The notes beneath the pieces were generated by a model that searched no databases, was not told the DNA's origin, and saw only the letters and a list, made by a program, of their open reading frames with translations. Positions 1 to 459 of a DNA stretch of 459 nt are shown here, in pieces (the stretch's first letter is position 1; every line of letters begins with the position of its first letter). A program made the translations under genes and the position numbers. Source of the stretch: a phage; sequence record MK370062.1; one strand, given 5' to 3'.

Positions 1-459
1 ATGAAAGCGAACGAAAACGCGGTGGCGTTTCAGACCGCGATTGCGAGCATTAAACTGATTCAGGCGAGCAGCGTGCTGGATCTGACCGAAGATGATTTTG
101 AATTTCTGACCCGCGATCGCGTGTGGATTGCGACCGATCGCAGCCGCGCGCGCCGCGCGATTGAAGCGTGCGTGTATGGCACCCTGGATTTTGTGGGCTA
201 TCCGCGCTTTCCGGCGCCGATTGAATTTATTGCGGCGGTGATTGCGTATTATGTGCATCCGGTGAACATTCAGACCGCGTGCCTGATTATGGAAGGCGCG
301 GAATTTACCGAAAACATTATTAACGGCGTGGATGCGCCGGTGAAAGCGGCGGAACTGTTTGCGTTTACCCTGCGCGTGCGCGCGGGCAACACCGAACTGA
401 TTACCTATGCGGAAAACAACGCGCGCGAAAAACTGCGCGCGCAGGGCGTGATGGATGTG
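1..459 (+). CDS. Hypothetical protein of unknown family, 153 codons, 3'-partial (ATG at nt 1, no stop codon in window); nucleotide sequence appears to be a single-codon back-translation of a protein
   Basis: Seen in sequence: frame +1 is open across all 153 codons from ATG at 1-3 to GTG at 457-459. Frames +2 and +3 are interrupted early (e.g. tga at 56-58 in frame +2, taa at 51-53 in frame +3). All 20 amino acids are present and each uses one codon only. No upstream sequence is available, so no RBS or promoter can be assessed. Product assignment is not possible from memory-based comparison; I recognise no family. Confidence 0.8.
   Translation, partial: MKANENAVAFQTAIASIKLIQASSVLDLTEDDFEFLTRDRVWIATDRSRARRAIEACVYGTLDFVGYPRFPAPIEFIAAVIAYYVHPVNIQTACLIMEGAEFTENIINGVDAPVKAAELFAFTLRVRAGNTELITYAENNAREKLRAQGVMDV

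Follow-up and report, generated by a model that had tools for sequence, protein, structure and literature searches.

The window, by which we mean the whole stretch of 459 bases that was analysed, opens on ATG, measures 3 x 153 bases and lacks a stop codon. All three properties had been pointed out in the initial annotation and were verified. By tblastn against 50,697 phage records, the 153-residue translation of the window matches gene D of the Enterobacteria phages ID18 (DQ079908, NC_007856) and WA14 (DQ079909) with 100% identity along its whole length, and gene D of phage EMCL318 shows 98.7% identity to it in the same records. The same protein is catalogued as YP_512793.1 and UniRef100_Q2LL47, under the name 'External scaffolding protein D'. 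According to the annotation of NC_007856.1, native gene D overlaps three genes, namely gene C at its 3' end, the lysis gene E in full and gene J at its start. The corresponding sites in the window, together with an open antisense frame, are the following:

1-14, plus strand: 3' overlap with gene C; the native C stop, TGA at 12-14, has become CGA in the window.
176-451, plus strand (frame +2): site of lysis gene E, interrupted by five internal stops; its ATG and its terminal TGA are kept by chance.
455-459, plus strand: start of gene J; the ATG at 455-457 is kept by chance, and the TAA with which native gene D then ends is gone.
1-459, minus strand: antisense frame in register with frame +1, open across 153 codons, a by-product of the codon set.

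The window protein belongs to the Microviridae gpD family, as judged from its Pfam profile and from its similarity to solved gpD structures; the DNA is no native gene D. The match to Pfam PF02925 (bacteriophage scaffolding protein D) reaches 276.7 bits for a cut-off of 25 (E = 4.5e-83) and covers positions 3-141 of 141. PHROG 1386 (head morphogenesis) is also matched (6.5e-72). Comparison with the gpD chains of phiX174 (PDB 1AL0, 1CD3, 1M0F and 1TX9) gives E = 1.6e-82, with residues 3-151 aligned and an identity of about 84% (125 of the 149 aligned residues counted). Relative to phiX174, gpD of ID18 carries 24 substitutions, concentrated at the N- and C-termini, and a two-residue C-terminal extension (MDV instead of M). 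As described in the phiX174 and G4 literature, the external lattice made of gpD is shed upon maturation. The external shell around the procapsid consists of 240 gpD molecules, four of them for each coat protein F (PMC4627924, citing Dokland et al. 1999). The annotation of the NC_007856.1 record likewise notes the external scaffolding shell of gpD. By analogy, this procapsid function may be carried over to the window protein, given its complete identity to a catalogued gpD and its closeness to the phiX174 protein.

On the basis of the protein, the source is precisely the gpD of the ID18/WA14 cluster of G4-like Bullavirinae. Within the G4 clade, phages of the ID18/WA14 type group tightly together; they were recovered from Idaho and Washington wastewater (PMC6316680). 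It had been claimed at the outset that DNA-level properties of the window are uninformative about its origin. This is agreed; nevertheless, the protein pins down the source. As a separate observation, one ENA member of the cluster of the window protein (P0007) has 173 amino acids, that is 20 residues more than the other seven. Its contig is short (1.2 kb), and the extra length probably reflects a start called further upstream, within the overlap of C and D.

The most striking property of the window is the regularity of its codons. Tabulation of frame +1 gave exactly 20 distinct codons across 153, with a single codon for each amino acid and no exception. The initial annotation had reported one codon per amino acid and 20 in all; the same codon set was recovered, and a check of frame +1 for any synonymous codon found none. 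The counts are as follows:

Frame +1, part 1: GCG 24, CTG 10, CGC 11, GGC 6, GTG 13, ATT 13, ACC 10.
Frame +1, part 2: AGC 4, CCG 5, GAA 12, GAT 8, AAA 4, AAC 8, CAG 4.
Frame +1, part 3: TTT 9, TAT 5, CAT 1, TGC 2, TGG 1, ATG 3.

Frames +2 and +3 contain 30 and 46 distinct triplets, respectively, and numerous stops, so that the regularity is confined to frame +1. If codons are treated as independent draws, the chance that gpD would be encoded with one codon per residue is about 10^-45 with E. coli usage and about 10^-42 with the usage of phage ID18. In E. coli K-12, windows of 153 codons use between 32 and 57 distinct codons, with a median of 47 (696 windows from 159 genes). Similarly, native ID18 gene D uses 46 codons and ends with TAA, as compared with 20 codons and no stop in the window. 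The earlier remark that native genes of this length employ many synonymous codons is therefore borne out by both comparisons, and the single-codon pattern is confirmed to lie beyond any natural fluctuation.

The choice of the codons is equally regular. A table of E. coli K-12 codon usage was compiled from four 50-kb regions of NC_000913.3, in which 159 complete annotated genes supplied 54,940 codons. Each of the 20 window codons is the commonest genome-wide synonym in this table, which rests on 200 kb, a part of the genome; two calls are fairly close (CGC 0.43 against CGT 0.40, ATT 0.50 against ATC 0.45). The E. coli-like table of most frequent codons that had been suspected from the letters alone is thus recovered for 20 codons out of 20. 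Random choice among synonyms would give such a complete match with a probability of 3e-9 (18 degenerate amino acids). Since all codons are the top E. coli ones, the window is recovered without a single base difference when the protein is back-translated with this table. Agreement is restricted to 10 of the 20 codons when the window is compared with the preferred codons of 16 highly expressed E. coli genes (atp operon, dnaK, ompA, ptsHI-crr, talB, fabA, cysK and rpsT). The disagreements are the following:

Window TTT, TAT, CAT, GAT, ATT; highly expressed genes TTC, TAC, CAC, GAC, ATC.
Window CGC, GGC, GCG, GTG, AGC; highly expressed genes CGT, GGT, GCT, GTT, TCT.

With the top codons of phage ID18 itself, agreement falls to only 8 of 20. 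Moreover, codons ending in A or T (ATT, TTT, TAT, CAT, GAT, AAA, GAA) are mixed with codons ending in G or C, so that mutational bias offers no explanation. The rule behind the window is a plain genome-wide frequency look-up, and neither translational selection nor a CAI-style design.

At the DNA level, the native ID18 gene D (NC_007856.1, 1982-2443) is 78.9% identical to the window, 97 of the 459 positions being different. It is also the best blastn match of the window, at 79.5%. Third codon positions account for 87 of the 97 differences, and the longest run in common is 14 bases. The other 10 differences lie at first or second positions because the changes from TCN to AGC at serine and from TTR to CTG at leucine require them. 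From the native gene to the window, G+C rises from 47% to 56%, GC3 from 41% to 66% and the observed/expected ratio of CpG from 1.25 to 1.78.

Ten natural contigs, found in NCBI, ENA and Logan, encode an identical gpD. Their DNA is 95-100% identical to that of ID18 and 78-79% identical to the window. Gene D uses 44-47 codons in these contigs and ends with TAA, and gene E is intact in all of them. In the natural loci with an identical gpD, the gene context is C-D(E)-J-F. The gene order of Bullavirinae is A-B-K-C-D(E)-J-F. It can also be observed that in the natural loci L006-L015 (1001-1462), which come from unrelated samples, the DNA departs from ID18 by up to 4.6%, with gpD unchanged and E open. 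At the sequence level, the ten contigs suggest that the overlapped frames D and E are both under strong purifying selection.

In the window, the features of the native DNA that go beyond what the protein dictates are lost, namely gene E, the stop of gene C and the stop of gene D. The native E open reading frame, of 91 amino acids, is intact in NC_007856.1 as well as in the 10 natural contigs; in locus L001, it occupies 1676-1951. An embedded E is a mark of a native Bullavirinae gene D; in the window, the five internal stops break it. In the overlap with gene C, the native sequence is ATGAAAGCAAATGA and the window reads ATGAAAGCGAACGA. At the start of gene J, the native sequence is ATGGATGTCTAAAAAATC and the tail of the window ATGGATGTG. 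An allele of this kind could not be viable in a living microvirus unless gene E were relocated. Loss of the overlapped E and C information is as expected if the protein sequence of gpD was the sole input.

Several other properties of the window are by-products of the codon set. The G+C content, the CpG excess and the open antisense frame are there because the codon table creates them. In particular, the antisense frame is open because every codon in use gives a sense codon when reverse-complemented (TTA, CTA and TCA are unused). This antisense open reading frame was considered as a gene and rejected, as an automatic outcome of the codon set. ORF callers could take such antisense frames for genes wherever a sequence has been back-translated with the same table. 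At positions 139-159, the window carries the stretch CGCAGCCGCGCGCGCCGCGCG, which encodes RSRARRA and is almost pure G+C, made by the codon table. Such a G+C run, together with the CpG value of 1.78, carries a risk of being misread as a repeat or as a structured element. A scan of both strands of the window against Rfam (E <= 1) gave no match.

The DNA of the window was searched for in natural collections. Megablast against phages (50,697 records), plasmids (72,556) and complete E. coli genomes (5,426) gave no match. Likewise, an exact 51-mer (window 157-207) and an exact 42-mer (349-390, confirmed to be part of the window) were absent from IMG/VR, from the GTDB species genomes and from the JGI metagenomes. 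These searches spanned phage, plasmid, E. coli, viral, genome and metagenome collections, the synthetic-construct and patent divisions of GenBank being outside their scope. The initial annotation had named a protein match without a matching nucleotide match as support for back-translation. This is the pattern obtained, with gpD matched at 100% and near-identical DNA found nowhere in the collections searched; nor did any natural record in these collections carry the exact DNA.

Altogether, the window was very probably obtained by artificial reverse translation of the ID18/WA14 gpD, every residue being written with the codon commonest in E. coli, and it was likely produced in silico. The input would be the 153-residue gpD of the G4-like coliphages ID18/WA14 (family Microviridae, subfamily Bullavirinae), and a table look-up would have turned each residue into the one codon that E. 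coli uses most often for it. A terminal stop would be missing because a protein record has none. This reading is directly supported by the use of one codon per residue, by the codon table, identified from top entries throughout, by the identity to a catalogued protein without matching DNA in the natural collections searched, and by the disappearance of the overlapping genes and of other native DNA features, all of them marks of an artificial reverse translation. None of the data contradict it. The codon table, the identity limited to the protein and the lost gene E also bear out the first reading of the window as a back-translated protein instead of native DNA, and each of the checks suggested with that reading spoke for it.

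The output would most likely be purely in silico, from a reverse-translation tool set to an E. coli table, and would never have been cloned. We infer both the use of such a tool and that the sequence was never synthesised. One web tool in wide use, SMS Reverse Translate, outputs the likeliest codons and works by default with an E. coli table (PMC7447578). The output of this tool, like that of EMBOSS backtranseq with an E. coli table, consists of one top codon per residue with no stop and no flanks, as in the window. Any genome-wide E. coli table yields the same output; these two tools are examples.

Alternatively, the window could be a physically synthesised, crudely codon-optimised gene for gpD expression, with one codon per amino acid, trimmed to its coding part. 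The codon set is indeed the genome-wide optimum of E. coli, and one codon per residue is the simplest historical scheme of codon optimisation. In addition, gpD proteins have already been expressed and crystallised (PDB 1TX9, 1AL0, 1CD3). However, the solved gpD structures are those of phiX174 and not of ID18, and the plasmid collection contains no match. A stop codon, a tag, a ribosome-binding site and a cloning flank are all missing, and the preferences of highly expressed genes are ignored (10/20 agreement). Gene-synthesis software normally splits G+C-rich runs; here they are left unbroken, as in CGCAGCCGCGCGCGCCGCGCG. We regard the expression gene as improbable. More generally, it is quite unlikely that the window is the coding part of any physically built gene D, made either for expression or to uncouple E in a refactored G4-like genome. 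Were it so, the window would be an engineered reagent rather than a database artefact.

The window might also come from a synthetic G4-like phage genome that was deliberately recoded or decompressed, so that gene D would be released from its overlaps with C, E and J. These three overlaps are indeed removed in the window, and refactored, codon-recoded phiX174 genomes exist (PMC7881332; bioRxiv 10.1101/2020.06.10.143693). However, the published recoding of phiX174 steered clear of the overlapping regions (PMC7881332), and it swaps some codons only, without imposing a single codon per amino acid. It should also be noted that the window has neither stop nor flanks, that the phage collection holds no matching DNA, and that the literature search returned no recoding or refactoring work on ID18/WA14, the papers found describing natural phages or comparing them. 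A recoded genome is a very remote explanation.

Finally, a natural gene with an extreme codon bias, arising from translational selection or mutational pressure, has nothing in its favour except the bias itself and is effectively refuted, its likelihood being negligible, by the probability of the pattern (P ~1e-42 to 1e-45), by the mixed codon endings, by a codon that differs from the preference of highly expressed genes at 10 amino acids, by the 44-47 codons of natural genes for the identical protein, by the destruction of the essential lysis gene E and by the lack of a natural DNA match in phage, plasmid, E. coli, viral, genome and metagenome collections.

The preferred reading, an artificial reverse translation of the ID18/WA14 gpD, makes the window unfit for analyses at the DNA level, whether of codon usage, composition, ORF calling or overlapping genes. 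It brings no novelty: the protein is well studied and already catalogued, the artefact is of a known kind, and there is no new biology. Its significance is one of quality control only, and the window needs to be marked as artificial.
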